DNA of 8,882 nucleotides from a virus (taxonomy: Duplodnaviria; Heunggongvirae; Uroviricota; Caudoviricetes), in IMG/VR virus record IMGVR_UViG_2534681772_000013. The stretch is one strand, 5' to 3'. Below, piece after piece: positions 193 to 8,882 of this stretch. The notes below the pieces were generated by a model. That model ran no database searches. It was not told the origin of the DNA and saw only the letters and a list, made by a program, of their open reading frames with translations. Position 1 is the first letter of the stretch, and the number at the start of each line of letters is the position of its first letter. The position numbers and the translations under genes were made by a program.

Positions 193-747
193 TCAGCCAA
201 CAAATTTAGCAACAAATACAGCAACCGCCGCCGTGAAAATGGTTGTGCATACTGGCACAATAATGCCACTCCAACGCCACTTCGTATTATCATCAACCTT
301 GTCAAACCGCCGATTCATCTCATCCATAATCTTGTCAAAGCGTTTATCCATCGCTTCGGTAAGCTCACCCTTCAGGCTGTTAATGTCTGATTTGAGCTGC
401 TCTTTCAGGTGAGCTGTATCAGATTTAAGCTCACCTTTCAGATTCGCAATATCGCATTTAAGATCACCTTTCAGATGAGCAATGTCTGCTTTGAGCTCAC
501 CTTTCACCTCACCAACATCGGCTTTGGTTGAGAGGTTTGTAGTGCGTTCAGCAAGCGTCGCAAGGTCGTTTCTTGTTAGCGATAAATCACTTTCGAGTCG
601 CTCAATTCGCCTTTCAAGTTTATCTGACATTCCACCTCCACTACTGCCGCCATCGCCGCCATGATAAAGCACATCACGCTCAGAATGCGACATACTACCT
701 GCTGAATTACCGAAAAGGTTTCTTGCTACATTACCCATTTTCACCAT
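193..747 (-). CDS. Coiled-coil protein with Gly/Ser-rich N-terminal linker, five hendecad repeats (LKGELKxDIAx) and a single C-terminal transmembrane anchor; function unknown
   Basis: 184-aa ORF from the track. Residues 81-135 form five 11-residue repeats; the C-terminus WRWSGIIVPVCTTIFTAAVAVFVAKFVG is a hydrophobic helix. An internal ATG at 736-738 has an AGGA 8 nt upstream and may be the true start. The start overlaps the stop of the upstream zinc-ribbon gene, suggesting translational coupling. Confidence 0.6.
   Translation of the reverse strand: MVKMGNVARNLFGNSAGSMSHSERDVLYHGGDGGSSGGGMSDKLERRIERLESDLSLTRNDLATLAERTTNLSTKADVGEVKGELKADIAHLKGDLKCDIANLKGELKSDTAHLKEQLKSDINSLKGELTEAMDKRFDKIMDEMNRRFDKVDDNTKWRWSGIIVPVCTTIFTAAVAVFVAKFVG
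343..507. repeat. Five tandem copies of an approximately 33-bp unit encoding the hendecad repeats of the coiled-coil protein
   Basis: Recurring motif visible in the DNA (gagctcacctttcag / gatttaagctcacctttcag / atttaagatcacctttcag) at about 33-bp spacing, matching protein repeats VKGELKADIAH-LKGDLKCDIAN-LKGELKSDTAH-LKEQLKSDINS-LKGELTEAMDK. Confidence 0.6.
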
Positions 748-1093: not shown

Positions 1094-1232
1094 CAGCCGC
1101 TCCTTATGTTTATTGACACGACTCATCGACTTCTTATTGATTTCATCAGCTTCTTCTTTGCATTTATCTTCTATATATTTCGATAGTAAATAGTCATATA
1201 ACTCTTTTTTTGTAGGTTTTTTATTTCCATAG

Positions 1233-2210
1233 TTACATTCCTCCCAAGGGATTAAACCTCACCGCATCCTGCAGGTAATCCGGCGCAAGATGGGCATAAA
1301 TCATCGTTGTCTGAATCTTTGCGTGCCCCAGAATTTTCTGGAGCGTCAGAATATTGCCGCCGTTCATCATGAAATGACTGGCGAAGGTGTGGCGCAGCGC
1401 ATGAACAGCCTGGCCGTCAGGAACATCAGGTGCGACCGTTTTGATGACATCGCGAACCAATGGATAATCCAGCGTCGGAAACACCAGTTTCCCGCCCCGT
1501 TTTTTGATCTTTTCAAACAGGCTTTCAGAAATAGGAACGGTACGGTTTTTGCTGTTCTTCGTTTTTGAAAAAGTGATTCGACAATGAAGAACACGGCGCT
1601 GCTCCAGTGCCGCTACCTCGCCCCATCGCGCCCCGGTCGACAGAAGGATTTCGACAGCCAGCCGTTCATCGGGATTTTCAGCCAGTGCATCCAGCAACTG
1701 AACACATTCAGACTTACTCAGATATCCCATTTCGCGCTCGTTAACCTTCATTCCTTTAAGGCCTTGAACGGGGTTATCGTTAAGAAAATGGCCGGATGAG
1801 ATGAGTGCGGTAAACATCGCGCTTAACGCCCCAATCTCTCGATTAATGGTGCTGGGCTGTATCCCCTGCTCTATCCTGGACACACGCAGCTCGGTGAGCA
1901 TCGTTGTATTAAGTTTATGCACGCACGGGTCATCCATTGCCTCACTCAAGCGCAGCAATTTAAGGCGCGTGTTATGCCCTGACTTCATTAGCTGACCGTG
2001 GTATTTCCACCACAAGTCAATAAGCACTGACAGCGGACGGCGATCAATGGAGTTTCCTTTCCACTCATTGTTATGCTGTTGCGCCAGCACCCACCGCTCA
2101 TATAAAACTGCATCCGATTTCGTTTTAAATTTTTTACGAATGCGCTTGCCTTTGCGCCCCTCTGGACGCATGTCAAGAAGATAACCTCCCGGAATTGATT
2201 TTATGCTCAT
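1233..2210 (-). CDS. int: Tyrosine site-specific integrase, P2-family
   Basis: C-terminal catalytic signature HALRHTFASHFMMNGGNILTLQKILGHAKIQTTMIYAHLAPDY (R, H-x-x-R, Y) and an N-terminus MSIKSIPGGYLLDMRPEGRKGKRIRKKFKTKSDAV typical of P2-like integrases. The track ORF extends to 2360, but that extension overlaps the 3' end of the repressor gene in another frame; the ATG at 2208-2210 gives a 326-aa protein of the expected size. Confidence 0.9.
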   Translation of the reverse strand: MSIKSIPGGYLLDMRPEGRKGKRIRKKFKTKSDAVLYERWVLAQQHNNEWKGNSIDRRPLSVLIDLWWKYHGQLMKSGHNTRLKLLRLSEAMDDPCVHKLNTTMLTELRVSRIEQGIQPSTINREIGALSAMFTALISSGHFLNDNPVQGLKGMKVNEREMGYLSKSECVQLLDALAENPDERLAVEILLSTGARWGEVAALEQRRVLHCRITFSKTKNSKNRTVPISESLFEKIKKRGGKLVFPTLDYPLVRDVIKTVAPDVPDGQAVHALRHTFASHFMMNGGNILTLQKILGHAKIQTTMIYAHLAPDYLQDAVRFNPLGGM

Positions 2211-2259
2211 TCGTGAAACCCCAGCGTTACAAGACCACCATGCCCCCAGCGTTCCATGA

Positions 2260-2570
2260 TTAGCCGGGCTGTGTGCCAGTCTTGCGGGATTTTTGAGAAG
2301 ACGATGTGTTTTCTGGCCCATCAGGGGAGAGAGAGGGACTGATCTGCCCTGCAGCCTCATTTGTTTTTCCCGTCATAAGCCATATAGTGTATTTTTCGAA
2401 ATCCTTAGAATTAATTACGCGATCAACAACGCTTAAACCAACCTCTCTTTTACCGCTCTCATAATTCTTTATAGTTCCGAGATTTATCCCAGTAACATCA
2501 GCAAACTCAGCTTGAGTTAACCCTTCACTTTTCCGTATCTCTTTCAGTTTTTTTCGTACCCACTTGACAT
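2260..2570 (-). pseudogene. C: P2 C-type immunity repressor (XRE-family HTH), interrupted by a 1-nt frameshift in an A7 homopolymer
   Basis: ATG at 2568-2570 reads MSSGYEKN then stops. Shifting by 1 nt at the A7 run (plus T-run 2548-2554) gives MSSGYEKKLKEIRKSEGLTQAEFADVTGINLGTIKNYESGKREVGLSVVDRVINSKDFEKYTIWLMTGKTNEAAGQISPSLSPDGPENTSSSQKSRKTGTQPG (about 103 aa). This has a clear HTH and, from memory, a P2 C-like C-terminal tail. Position and orientation relative to int match P2. Confidence 0.55.
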
Positions 2571-2661
2571 GGTGGTCTCCAGACGACTAAATTAACCCTA
2601 AAAGTCGCCTAGAGACGACTTTTAGCAACAAATAACCACAGACTGAACAGGTTATCACATC
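2571..2661. promoter_or_regulatory. Divergent immunity switch region with operator-like repeats
   Basis: 90-bp intergenic region between divergent genes. Inverted repeat CTAAAAGTCG (2598-2607) / CGACTTTTAG (2616-2625) with an 8-bp spacer; direct repeat AGACGACT at 2581-2588 and 2613-2620. Confidence 0.5.
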
Positions 2662-2940
2662 ATGACAAAGCTCTTGAACACATACGAGCAAGCGGATTTT
2701 GAGCGTTTGGCGGCGTTCTACCCATACCGCGATGAGCATGGATTACCGGTACTCGAAGAAAGCCTGAAAGATTACGCGAAGCGTACCAATCAAACTGTTA
2801 ATGCAGTGAAAAGGCAGGCTGACAGAGCAGCCCTTCCCATCAACCAAGAAGAAAAAAACTCAAAACGTACAGTAAATCTCTTCGCAATTTTCCTGAAAAC
2901 CATCAGAAACGCAGAGAAATACGTGCAGATGACAAAATAA
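2662..2940 (+). CDS. First early-operon gene; possible Cox/Apl-like small DNA-binding regulator
   Basis: 92-aa ORF divergent from the repressor. The segment DYAKRTNQTVNAVKRQADRAALPI loosely resembles the HTH region of P2 Cox as I recall it. The RBS is weak, so the start is uncertain. Confidence 0.45.
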   Translation: MTKLLNTYEQADFERLAAFYPYRDEHGLPVLEESLKDYAKRTNQTVNAVKRQADRAALPINQEEKNSKRTVNLFAIFLKTIRNAEKYVQMTK

Positions 2941-3603: not shown

Positions 3604-3608
3604 TGGGC
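3604..3608. repeat. IS2 target-site duplication, left copy (TGGGC)
   Basis: The 5-bp TGGGC immediately outside the IS2 end at 3609 is identical to 4940-4944 outside the other end. Confidence 0.8.
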
Positions 3609-3619
3609 TGGATTTGCCC

Positions 3620-4525
3620 CTATATTTCCAGACATCTGTTATCACTTAACCCATTACAAGCCCGCTGCCGCAGATATTCCCGTGGCGAGCGATAACCCAG
3701 CGCACTATGCGGATGCCATTCGTTATAATGCTCGAACGCCTCTGCAAGGTTCTTTGCTGCCGTTAACCCGTCTGGTTTGGGCATGATACTGATGTAGTCA
3801 CGCTTTATCGTTTTCACGAAGCTCTCTGCTATTCCGTTACTCTCCGGACTCCGCACCGCCGTGTTCTTCGGTTCAAGTCCCAACATCCGGGCGAACTGGC
3901 GTGTTTCATTAGCCCGGTAGCATGAACCATTATCCGTCAGCCACTCCACTGGAGACGACGGAAGATCGTTGCCGAAGCGGCGTTCCACCGCTCCCAGCAT
4001 GACGTCCTGTACTGTTTCACTGTTGAAGCCGCCGGTAGTGACCGCCCAGTGCAGTGCCTCACGATCACAGCAGTCCAGCGCGAACGTGACACGCAGTCTC
4101 TCTCCGTTATCACAGCAGAACTCGAACCCGTCAGAGCACCATCGCTGATTGCTTTCTTTCACGGCCACTCTGCCTGTATGTGCCCGTTTCGATGGCGGTA
4201 CAGCAGGTTTTCGCTCAAGCAACAGCGCATTCTGGCGCATGATCCGGTAAACACGTTTGGCATTGATCGCAGGCATACCATCAAGTTCTGCCTGTCTGCG
4301 AAGCAGCGCCCATACCCGACGATAACCATACGTGGGCAGCTCTCCGATAACATGGTGTATACGGAGAAGCACATCCGTATCATCAGTGTGACGACTGCGG
4401 CGGCCATCCATCCAGTCATCGGTTCGTCTGAGAATGACGTGCAACTGCGCACGCGACACCCGGAGACAACGGCTGACTAAGCTTACTCCCCATCCCCGGG
4501 CAATAAGGGCGCGTGCGCTATCCAC
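3620..4525 (-). CDS. insD: IS2 transposase OrfB (DDE integrase domain)
   Basis: 301-aa translation matches IS2 InsD as recalled ([34 protein letters not shown] ... [14 protein letters not shown]). Confidence 0.93.
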
Positions 4526-4848
4526 TTTTTTGCCCGTCCATATTCAACGGCTTCTTTGAGGAGTTCATTTTCCATCGTTTTCTTGCCGAGCAGGCGCTGG
4601 AGTTCTTTAATCTGCTTCATGGCGGCAGCAAGTTCAGAGGCAGGAACAACCTGTTCTCCGGCGGCGACAGCAGTAAGACTTCCTTCCTGGTATTGCTTAC
4701 GCCAGAGAAATAACTGGCTGGCTGCTACACCATGTTGCCGGGCAACGAGGGAGACCGTCATCCCCGGTTCAAAGCTCTGCTGAACAATTGCGATCTTTTC
4801 CTGTGTGGTACGCCGTCTGCGTTTCTCCGGCCCTAAGACATCAATCAT
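4483..4848 (-). CDS. insC: IS2 transposase OrfA (HTH)
   Basis: Translation from the internal ATG at 4846-4848 is [56 protein letters not shown]... (121 aa). The track's longer 136-aa start lies in the IS2 terminal region and is not the native start. Confidence 0.9.
4506..4512 (-). other. IS2 programmed -1 ribosomal frameshift heptamer A-AAA-AAG (produces the InsCD fusion transposase)
   Basis: Minus-strand GCA-AAA-AAG-TGG in the insC frame, located in the insC/insD overlap, as is typical for the IS3 family. Confidence 0.7.
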
Positions 4849-4938
4849 CTGTTCTCCAATGACTAGTCTAAAAACTAGTATTAAGACTATCACTTATTTA
4901 AGTGATACTGGTTGTCTGGAGATTCAGGGGGGCAGTCT

Positions 4939-5181
4939 ATGGGCAAAGAATATAAAACTCTCATTAACAAAGCACTTGAGCGTTTTTATTTTCGCTTAAG
5001 TGCATCAGGCGCTCATGCTGAACGTGCGGCCCGTGACTCATTGACCAGAGCAATCCGAAGTCTGTATGACGTGGCTTTTTACGCTGATGATCTGGATGCA
5101 CTTAACGAACTTTCCGAGCTGATCTGTGCCGCAGAATGCGGGGAACATATTGAACCGTATAAGCTGGGAAATATCGCATGA
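4939..5181 (+). CDS. Hypothetical early protein whose start codon is split by the IS2 insertion
   Basis: ATG-GGC-AAA-GAA... encodes MGKEYKTLINKALERFYFRLSASGAHAERAARDSLTRAIRSLYDVAFYADDLDALNELSELICAAECGEHIEPYKLGNIA (80 aa). The ATG is rebuilt from the terminal A of IS2 plus the TG of the duplication; the original RBS and ATG (3591-3605) are now 1.3 kb upstream. Confidence 0.45.
   Translation: MGKEYKTLINKALERFYFRLSASGAHAERAARDSLTRAIRSLYDVAFYADDLDALNELSELICAAECGEHIEPYKLGNIA
4940..4944. repeat. IS2 target-site duplication, right copy (TGGGC)
   Basis: Identical to 3604-3608. Confidence 0.8.
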
Positions 5182-6290: not shown

Positions 6291-6577
6291 GCACCATCAA
6301 CCACCAGAAGCTACGCGAACTGGCATTTGCCCTGCAACGAATGGCAACGCCTCAAAAATTACTGGCATTTCGCGCAATGCTCTCGCCGTCTGCTGTGCTG
6401 GCACTGCTGAATGAGCTGGAGCACGCCAGAACCACGGCTCCTGCCATTCGCCTGACGCTCCATCATGAAATCGCTGATTTCTGCGCGACGTTGGAGGCGC
6501 CGGGCGAACCGGAAACGCCGGAAGCAATACAGCAAGAGCTGCTGCAACGCATTGACAAGGTTTTTGATTTTTTCTGA
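6287..6577 (+). CDS. Hypothetical protein, possibly Ead/Ea22-like
   Basis: 96-aa ORF with an ATGA start overlap. The motif SPSAVLALLNELEHARTTA resembles the conserved region of Ead/Ea22-like phage proteins as I recall it (weak). Confidence 0.5.
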   Translation: MSTINHQKLRELAFALQRMATPQKLLAFRAMLSPSAVLALLNELEHARTTAPAIRLTLHHEIADFCATLEAPGEPETPEAIQQELLQRIDKVFDFF

Positions 6578-6708
6578 ACCAGTAAGAAACCAGAACATGC
6601 ACACACAAAAAAAACCGCTTGCCATGCCGCAATCAGTCAGGTTACATTTCCGCTGCACCTCATAAAACGGGTGCCGGGATTTCCACCCCGCTGACAACTA
6701 CAGCGCAC

Positions 6709-6908: not shown

Positions 6909-7139
6909 ATGGCAAACCGCAAACAGCACCGCGCTATCGCGGAGCGTCGTCACATCCAGACTGAAATCAACCGCAGACTTTTCCGCGCATCACGCGTCGC
7001 GCAAATCATGCACATCAATATGCTGCATGAGCGCAGCCACGCACTATCAAACATCTATTCCGCCGCTGTTTTCAGCTATCTGGCGGATGATCTGCACGAG
7101 CTTCAACAGCTCATCCAGCAGCAAAACAAACTCCATTAA
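6909..7139 (+). CDS. Hypothetical small basic protein
   Basis: 76-aa ORF with AGAGG SD 8 nt upstream. Its composition is sensible, unlike the overlapping 198-aa track ORF. Confidence 0.5.
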   Translation: MANRKQHRAIAERRHIQTEINRRLFRASRVAQIMHINMLHERSHALSNIYSAAVFSYLADDLHELQQLIQQQNKLH

Positions 7140-7583: not shown

Positions 7584-8882
7584 ATGACGGCAGAGTACAT
7601 CAGGGACTGGCAACAACCGCGCCACGCAGTGGGGCGTGAAGGAACGGGGATCCCCGCTCCTGAATCCGCGCTTTCCTCCTGGCTGGATGCCTACCGGGCA
7701 GAGAACGAGCGCCGCCAGGAAATGGCTGATGCGGCGTTCTCCGCCACGCCGCTGGGCAACCTGATTAATAAAAGCCTGGACGCACAGGAAAAACAGGACA
7801 AAACCATCACACTGGCAGGAGACGCCAGAAAACAGGCACGCGGCGCGGTGGATGAAGCCATGGCCTCGCTGCGCCTGCTGCCGTCCTATCTGCGCGATCC
7901 GCTTATTCGCCACCTCTCCTTCCTTCGCAAAAAACAGGAAGCCGATCGCCGGAAAGGCAAAAAGAGCTGGCAGGCGGAACGCTATGCACGCGGAACCCTG
8001 CGCAAAATATTCGAACGTCTGGATCGCACTGACGGACGCTGGCTGACACCGGGTTATCGCTCCCTTGCCGGACGCGAACGCCTGGACGATTTGCTTTACC
8101 TGCCGCAGCTCAACAAACACCAGATACAGACGCTGGCCACCATGACGGCAGCGATGTTCAGCAGCACCTTCGAAAAACTCTGCGATGGCTTTGGCGCGAC
8201 TGATGGCGAACTGACCATGGATGTATCGCTGAAGGCGTATCAGATGCTGGCCCGCATGGCGTTACACCTGCACGCTATGCCTCCACATTATGACGCACTG
8301 ACAACAGATAAAGACCGGAGGAACGAACCGGACACAGAGCTGCTGCCGGGCGCAATCCTTCGCCTGACCTGTGCGGAATGGTGGAAACGCAAACTGTGGC
8401 TGTTACGTTGCGAGTGGAGAGAAGAACAACTCCGCGCCGCCTGTCTGGTTTCCAGAAAAACATCGCCCTATCTGAGCCAGGACGCGTTAAGCGAGTTTCG
8501 CGCACAGCGCGAGAAAACACGCGATTTCCTGAAAAGTTTCATGCTGGAAAACGAAGACGGGTTCACGATTGATCTCGAGACAGTGTATTACGCGGGAGTA
8601 AGTAACCCGGTTCACCGTAAGGCAGAAATGATGGCCACCATGAAGGGACTGGAACTTCTGGCCGAAGCCCGTGGCGACAGAGCGGTGTTTCTGACTGTCA
8701 CCTGCCCGTCAAAATACCACGCAACAACAGAGAACGGTCATCCGAATCCCAAATGGAACGGGGCCACCATGCGCGACTCCAGCGATTACCTGGTTAACAC
8801 GTTTTTTTGCGGCGGTCCGCAAGAAACTGAACCGCGACGGCCTGCGCTGGTATGGCATCCGCACGGTGGAGCCTCACCATGA
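7584..8882 (+). CDS. A: P2 gpA-family rolling-circle replication initiator, frameshifted at a T7 run and truncated by the window end
   Basis: The 432-aa frame-0 translation ends ...NTFFCGGPQETEPRRPALVWHPHGGASP. After the T-run 8811-8817 the +1 frame reads AAVRKKLNRDGLRWYGIRTVEPHH, which matches the conserved gpA-family motif as I recall it, and stays open to the window end. A T6 run would give one continuous ORF. Confidence 0.8.
   Translation: MTAEYIRDWQQPRHAVGREGTGIPAPESALSSWLDAYRAENERRQEMADAAFSATPLGNLINKSLDAQEKQDKTITLAGDARKQARGAVDEAMASLRLLPSYLRDPLIRHLSFLRKKQEADRRKGKKSWQAERYARGTLRKIFERLDRTDGRWLTPGYRSLAGRERLDDLLYLPQLNKHQIQTLATMTAAMFSSTFEKLCDGFGATDGELTMDVSLKAYQMLARMALHLHAMPPHYDALTTDKDRRNEPDTELLPGAILRLTCAEWWKRKLWLLRCEWREEQLRAACLVSRKTSPYLSQDALSEFRAQREKTRDFLKSFMLENEDGFTIDLETVYYAGVSNPVHRKAEMMATMKGLELLAEARGDRAVFLTVTCPSKYHATTENGHPNPKWNGATMRDSSDYLVNTFFCGGPQETEPRRPALVWHPHGGASP

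Follow-up and report, generated by a model that had tools for sequence, protein, structure and literature searches.

The locus at positions 2260-2570 raises the question of whether the immunity repressor gene of this P2-like prophage is really broken, or appears so because one letter is missing from a run of adenines. It lies on the minus strand of a window of 8,882 nt (the whole stretch of DNA analyzed here). The first-pass annotation had proposed that the gene can be read only if its run of seven adenines (A7) holds eight (A8). It had left two explanations side by side: a genuine frameshift, tolerated because the lytic functions of the prophage were already dead, and a homopolymer sequencing error. 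The argument turns on the following features of the immunity region.

1233-2210, minus strand: tyrosine integrase gene (int), 325 aa
2260-2570, minus strand: P2 C-type repressor gene, with a mini-ORF encoding MSSGYEKN and a stop at 2570-2544, and the helix-turn-helix frame at 2547-2260
2548-2554, minus strand: homopolymer run and apparent frameshift site, A7 here and A8 in relatives
2564-2593, plus strand: predicted Pe-like early promoter, with TTGACA at 2564-2569, 18 nt, and TAAATT at 2588-2593, matching the consensus at 10 of 12 positions
2572-2620, plus strand: two direct repeats, candidate C operators, with the core AGACGACT at 2581-2588 and 2613-2620
2662-2940, plus strand: cox-like first gene of the early operon, 92 aa, matching PHROG 11533 at 1e-56 and, weakly, PHROG 575 (Cox-like excisionase/repressor)

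A GGAG motif resembling a Shine-Dalgarno sequence precedes the minus-strand ATG at 2570-2568, from which the reading frame runs ATG TCA AGT GGG TAC GAA AAA AAC TGA and closes at the TGA at 2546-2544. The run at 2548-2554, A7 on this strand and T7 on the plus strand, places that ATG out of frame with the helix-turn-helix frame, which contains KKLKEIRKSEGLTQAEFADVTG and has no stop between 2568 and the TAA at 2262-2260. An ATG, GTG or TTG start was sought in the latter frame and none was encountered before an internal ATG at 2376. One additional A in the run restores a repressor of 103 aa, and the proposal that the gene is readable only with eight As is therefore correct as far as the reading frame goes. 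The NCBI annotation of the source contig has the repressor begin at a CTG at 2547, which yields 95 aa. In relatives the run is A8 and the gene forms an unbroken CDS of 312 nt, the 103-aa product of which is WP_000094527.1. The ORF with its normal start, which the window does not contain, is intact in all of the 82 complete genomes described below and in the draft assembly AIHF. The 38-aa residual ORF, taken as a marker of further A7 assemblies, was not called elsewhere in the collection searched.

The identity of the gene is well established by the restored protein, which aligns along its entire length with PHROG 147 (transcriptional regulator; 1.3e-35), matches the Pfam domain HTH_3 over residues 9-51 (2e-10), and shows 56% identity with the C protein of Wphi over residues 7-99, representing 90% of its length (E = 3e-28). 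The C genes of many P2-like phages are also 56% identical to it. The order of int, repressor and cox-like gene, the first two on the minus strand and the third on the plus strand, is identical in Wphi. Together, the PHROG 147 and HTH_3 matches, the likeness to Wphi C and the position between int and the cox-like gene confirm the initial assignment to the P2 C-type immunity repressors. Like the C proteins of Wphi and P2 (Peduovirus), the repressor has about 100 aa and an N-terminal XRE/HTH_3 domain and is encoded between int and a divergent cox-like gene; unlike them, it represents a distinct immunity type and its ORF is interrupted as written in the window. It also differs from Wphi C by an extra Lys codon, which stretches the A-run to eight. 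Among P2 C-type repressors this is an ordinary gene, and its immunity type is common in E. coli prophages. A comparison of the immunity-region DNA with 50,697 phage records returned nothing at or above about 85% identity, which indicates that this type has no close sequenced phage.

Beyond the cox-like gene, annotated as a DNA-binding protein in relatives, the DUF4761 and DUF4754 genes, a MarR-like gene, a “derepression” gene and gpA compose a P2-like early region; the prophage adjoins btuC. On the other side of the repressor, the integrase frame is open for 150 nt upstream of the real start of the gene (1233-2360, minus strand) and extends over the 3' end of the repressor gene. The 375-aa ORF reaching 2360 is a spurious extension of the integrase. 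Prodigal-type callers adopt it where the repressor ORF is interrupted or truncated, as observed in the Logan contigs L009 and L010.

The predicted Pe-like promoter points to the cox-like gene and its -35 element abuts the ATG of the repressor. The two direct repeats are found 32 nt apart, one on either side of the predicted -10 element. As candidate operators placed around a predicted -10, these repeats would be comparable with the direct-repeat operators of P2 and Wphi; their 32-nt spacing is a point of difference from P2-type C systems. At 2598-2625, downstream of the Pe-like promoter and ahead of the first codon of the cox-like gene, the two 13-nt arms CTAAAAGTCGCCT and AGACGACTTTTAG form a palindrome that overlaps the second direct repeat; it appeared as terminator-like on the minus strand in a scan, and could be an operator or an attenuator. 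We infer the promoter and operator roles from the sequence.

The window is an exact substring of the draft contig AIHG01000006.1 of E. coli DEC13B (GCA_000250335.2). It corresponds to the last 8.9 kb of this contig, which ends 43 nt past the window. The closest complete genomes, TW10590 and E300082, share 99.8% identity with it over the 551-nt immunity region, and in the alignment with TW10590 the missing A is the sole difference. Searched with an 80-nt query centered on the run, the complete RefSeq E. coli genomes provided 82 that carry the gene, and A7 occurs in none of these: no match reached 99% identity, each differs by one base, and the listed hits span 81 nt. All four complete-genome examples that were aligned have A8. 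The same length was found in seven of seven metagenome contigs by a pattern scan accepting either A7 or A8, all of them having the 32-nt form, so that the variant is missing from the high-quality assemblies, as would be expected from an artefact. The comparison of run lengths thus gave A8 in every reliable close relative. Contigs with the exact 103-aa protein number at least 1000, compared with four for the 95-aa form starting at CTG: AIHG, the sister draft AIHH01000035.1, CP015887 and a second O104:H4-type assembly. A7 is also found in the Logan re-assembly of run SRR096910, and is thus restricted to a handful of assemblies of low quality.

The occurrence of A7 in both AIHG and AIHH, which are identical to each other over 5 kb, and its recovery from raw reads by an independent assembler give some credit to a genuine A8-to-A7 replication slippage in the common ancestor of DEC13B and AIHH, and slippage is naturally frequent in long A/T runs. 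Under this hypothesis, which we regard as unlikely, the frameshift would be an ordinary pseudogenisation in a cryptic P2-like prophage, the repressor having been lost in an already defective element or immunity being supplied in trans. Run lengths within the DEC13 group, composed of the NCBI drafts AIHF, AIHG and AIHH (adjacent accessions) and the Logan re-assemblies of SRR096909 and SRR096910, are directly relevant to it. They are given below for the runs at 1205-1211, 1217-1222 and 2548-2554, in that order.

AIHG: 7/6/7
AIHH: 7/6/7
AIHF: 6/7/8
Logan SRR096910: 6/6/7
Logan SRR096909: 6/6/8
TW10590: 7/7/8, with 7/7 at the first two runs in 11 other loci as well

No substitution separates the five DEC13-group assemblies over more than 6 kb, and run lengths alone differ between them, with four incompatible length combinations across the three runs. 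All four possible combinations are present for the run pairs 1205/1217 and 1205/2548, a pattern that a clonal tree with a single mutation at each site could not produce. The mutually incompatible combinations count against an inherited slippage, as does the sibling AIHF, which has A8. In AIHF and in run SRR096909, A8 goes with an intact 103-aa repressor gene that was called as such. Measurement noise is by far a simpler account of this pattern than repeated changes of run length unaccompanied by any substitution.

The inconsistency extends to other runs of the contig. Over 12.4 kb, the DEC13B contig and the near-identical TW10590 are separated by four substitutions and five indels. All five indels are gains or losses of a single base in runs of six to eight, both directions being represented; five of 21 runs of six or more are discordant, compared with none of the 186 runs of four or five, and no indel lies outside a run. 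Such a restriction of indels to long homopolymers, with few substitutions, is the signature expected from miscalls. The five discordant runs are listed here as read on the plus strand.

1217-1222, plus strand: T6 in the window, T7 in 12 other loci including TW10590
2548-2554, plus-strand reading of the repressor run: T7 in the window, T8 in TW10590
6568-6573, plus strand: T6 in the window, T7 in TW10590; near the 3' end of a 96/99-aa ORF
6607-6614, plus strand: A8 in the window, intergenic; A7 in all 17 other loci including TW10590
8802-8808, plus strand, in gpA: T7 in the window, T6 in 16 other loci including TW10590, T5 in AIHH and CP015887

Two of these lengths, A8 at 6607-6614 and T7 at 8802-8808, are unique to the DEC13B contig. 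T6 at 1217-1222 shortens to 120 aa a conserved 166-aa ORF adjoining int, which has two adjacent T-runs (1205-1211 and 1217-1222) at its 5' end and is intact in all ten other loci with the same integrase allele. Errors as the origin of all five discrepancies were considered and rejected, T6 at 6568-6573 being a natural allele found in at least six other assemblies (P2-like prophages). This polymorphism counts against an artefact to the extent that some discrepancies are not errors. The proportion of indels is nevertheless hard to reconcile with real slippage: five homopolymer indels are opposed to four substitutions over 12.4 kb, and two to none in the left 5 kb, a ratio far from natural. Mutation-accumulation studies find indels to be a small minority of the mutations in repair-proficient E. 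coli. All of the discordant runs are in the prophage and none is in the chromosomal flank, a distribution which speaks for real slippage and would also be expected under relaxed selection on a dead prophage. With none of six chromosomal runs (of six or seven bases) discordant compared with five of 15 in the prophage, the difference is not significant, and this distribution was discarded as a discriminator owing to the small sample.

An independent assembly reveals how the same change can be produced. Of the two A7 assemblies of the O104:H4 clone, the one examined was CP015887.1 (O104:H4-type), which is deposited as a complete genome and is absent from the RefSeq set searched. Compared with the finished genome 2011C-3493 over 16.3 kb, it has 11 single-base homopolymer deletions, for only one other single-base insertion and two substitutions. 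Set against other finished sequences of this clone, it has about one homopolymer deletion per 1.5 kb, and the genes broken are aroH, ydiV and nlpC as well as gpA (T6 to T5) and the prophage repressor (A8 to A7). Many other finished genomes of the O104:H4 outbreak clone have A8. The homopolymer deletions of CP015887 imply that the exact A8-to-A7 change does arise as an artefact, and this proven case weighs against slippage as the cause of A7 in DEC13B.

The view that a true frameshift would be tolerated relied on two further lesions, an IS2 insertion and a frameshift in gpA, which are described as follows.

3609-4939, minus strand: IS2, 1331 bp, 100% identical to annotated IS2, with the target duplication TGGGC at 3604-3608 and 4940-4944
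7584-8882, plus strand: replication endonuclease gpA, N-terminal part; it stops out of frame here and is intact, with 940-946 aa, in relatives

The IS2 reported by the first-pass annotation is real to the extent that an assembly can attest it, given its full identity with annotated IS2 over 1331 bp and its TGGGC target duplication. The insertion point is the ATG of DUF4754, a gene of the early operon, and the transposase genes oppose the direction of that operon. An A from the IS2 end together with the duplicated TGGGC regenerates the start codon of DUF4754, and the gene is separated from the Pe promoter. DEC13B is the one assembly, of those examined, that has this insertion. A polar IS2 in the early operon of DEC13B would agree with a repressor lost in a defective prophage; AIHH, however, has A7 and lacks IS2, and a loss of the repressor tolerated through IS2 consequently does not fit the distribution of the two changes.

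The discrepancy behind the gpA frameshift is itself in a homopolymer, T7 here, T5 in AIHH and T6 in 16 loci, located 80 nt from the end of the window and about 120 nt from the end of the contig. Three of the four substitutions relative to TW10590 lie within about 75 nt of this run, clustered in the last 160 nt (8720-8882), which suggests a poor or chimeric contig end. Both Logan contigs break at the same point, w3165, and a second, partly homologous P2-like prophage is suggested in this genome, making a chimeric consensus possible in the right half of the window. T7 and T5 in sibling genomes are moreover incompatible with real slippage, since a shared ancestor could not have had both; T7, T5 and T6 among assemblies add to the inconsistent run lengths observed within the clone, which are those expected from miscalls. 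Taken with AIHH, which combines A7 with the lack of IS2, the doubtful gpA lesion leaves unsupported the view that a genuine frameshift is tolerated because the lytic functions are already dead. The IS2 insertion is the only credible lesion in the window.

A further hypothesis is that A7 is real and that a low level of repressor would still be made by recoding in DEC13B and the AIHH strain, a possibility that the sequence makes conceivable and that we consider highly improbable. Three routes may be envisaged, each of which would provide a functional or almost complete repressor: ribosomes could slip by -1 on A_AAA_AAC, which is in the zero frame and adjoins the UGA; RNA-polymerase slippage on the A/T run could add one A; or termination could be followed by reinitiation at the CUG overlapping the UGA, which would give the 95-aa form with the whole HTH_3 domain (9-51) kept. 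The heptamer A AAA AAC is indeed a slippery motif in the zero frame with UGA directly next to it, a -1 shift would regenerate MSSGYEK(K/N)LKEI..., and the HTH_3 match begins at residue 9, just past the run. Recoding at A-runs is known from dnaX and from IS elements, in which -1 frameshifting occurs on A AAA AAG, and transcriptional slippage rescues poly(A) frameshifts in endosymbionts. The slippery A-rich heptamer in the zero frame beside a stop codon is common to these systems and to the present locus. Unlike them, the shifted arrangement is not conserved here, every reliable relative having an in-frame A8, and no stimulatory structure accompanies it: a downstream stimulatory RNA structure was sought and the fold is unremarkable (z = -1.5, 14 of 200 shuffles folding as well). 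The run is reduced to A5 in Wphi C and to A6 in the 102-aa immunity type, which also goes against recoding, and these lengths led us to rule out the long A-run as a conserved switch in C genes. Recoding presupposes, in addition, a real A7, which is unlikely in its own right, and as an evolved feature it is not supported. Were it true, it would make this a low-repressor, hair-trigger P2-like prophage in which the A8 tract (codons 6-8) would act as a mutational and transcriptional switch in a phage type that lacks SOS induction.

The evidence as a whole makes it most likely that A7 is a one-base homopolymer undercall in the error-prone 2012 draft assembly of DEC13B. The sequencing error that the first-pass annotation had offered as its alternative is thereby favored by comparison, A8 being the length in all reliable relatives. 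The pattern resembles miscalls of the pyrosequencing type, as runs of six or more are the only ones affected, over-calls and under-calls are both present and siblings and assemblers disagree with each other without substitutions. Also in common with known homopolymer miscalls of draft or long-read assemblies, conserved genes are broken, and an identical error is present in CP015887. This error pattern suggests reads from a platform prone to homopolymer errors, for instance pyrosequencing. The main point against a miscall is that A7 is found in two drafts (AIHG and AIHH) and was produced by two assemblers (NCBI draft and Logan SRR096910), which implies that most reads in those data sets read seven. 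Random homopolymer noise would not behave in this way, and a bias affecting the majority of the reads is needed. Conversely, a truly repressor-less prophage in AIHH would have nothing evident to prevent it from killing its host, its sole other lesion in this region being the doubtful gpA run.

With the run miscalled, the gene of the living DEC13B would most likely have A8 and encode an intact 103-aa P2 C-type repressor. Acting at the direct-repeat operators, this protein would silence the divergent early promoter (Pe/cox), and the prophage adjoining btuC would be a P2-like lysogen of the usual repressed kind, with an IS2 inserted in its early operon. A real frameshift would amount to a further pseudogene in a prophage undergoing decay and would be of minor interest. 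The practical value of the case is as a warning about this contig, in which runs of six or more cannot be relied upon. Within 8.9 kb, long runs account for at least three apparent gene breaks, in gpA, in the C repressor gene and in the 166-aa ORF, and inferences of prophage decay drawn from them are unsafe. A fourth ORF (96/99 aa) differs in its C-terminus at the naturally polymorphic run.

Two other ORFs of the window deserve mention. A 76-aa ORF at 6909-7139 (plus strand), preceded by a non-coding gap of 330 nt, matches the Pfam family PF25738 (“Derepression protein family”) with 31.8 bits for a cut-off of 27 bits. Its product may counteract C-type repressors as an antirepressor. A LexA box was looked for upstream of this gene and across the window, and the four matches obtained, for 2.8 expected, are at chance level. 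At the border between prophage and chromosome, an ORF at 193-747 (minus strand) encodes a predicted coiled coil with repeated heptads of the LKGELKSD type and has weak CCDC90-like and DUF1640 matches; it is called as 145, 166 or 181 aa, varying by strain.
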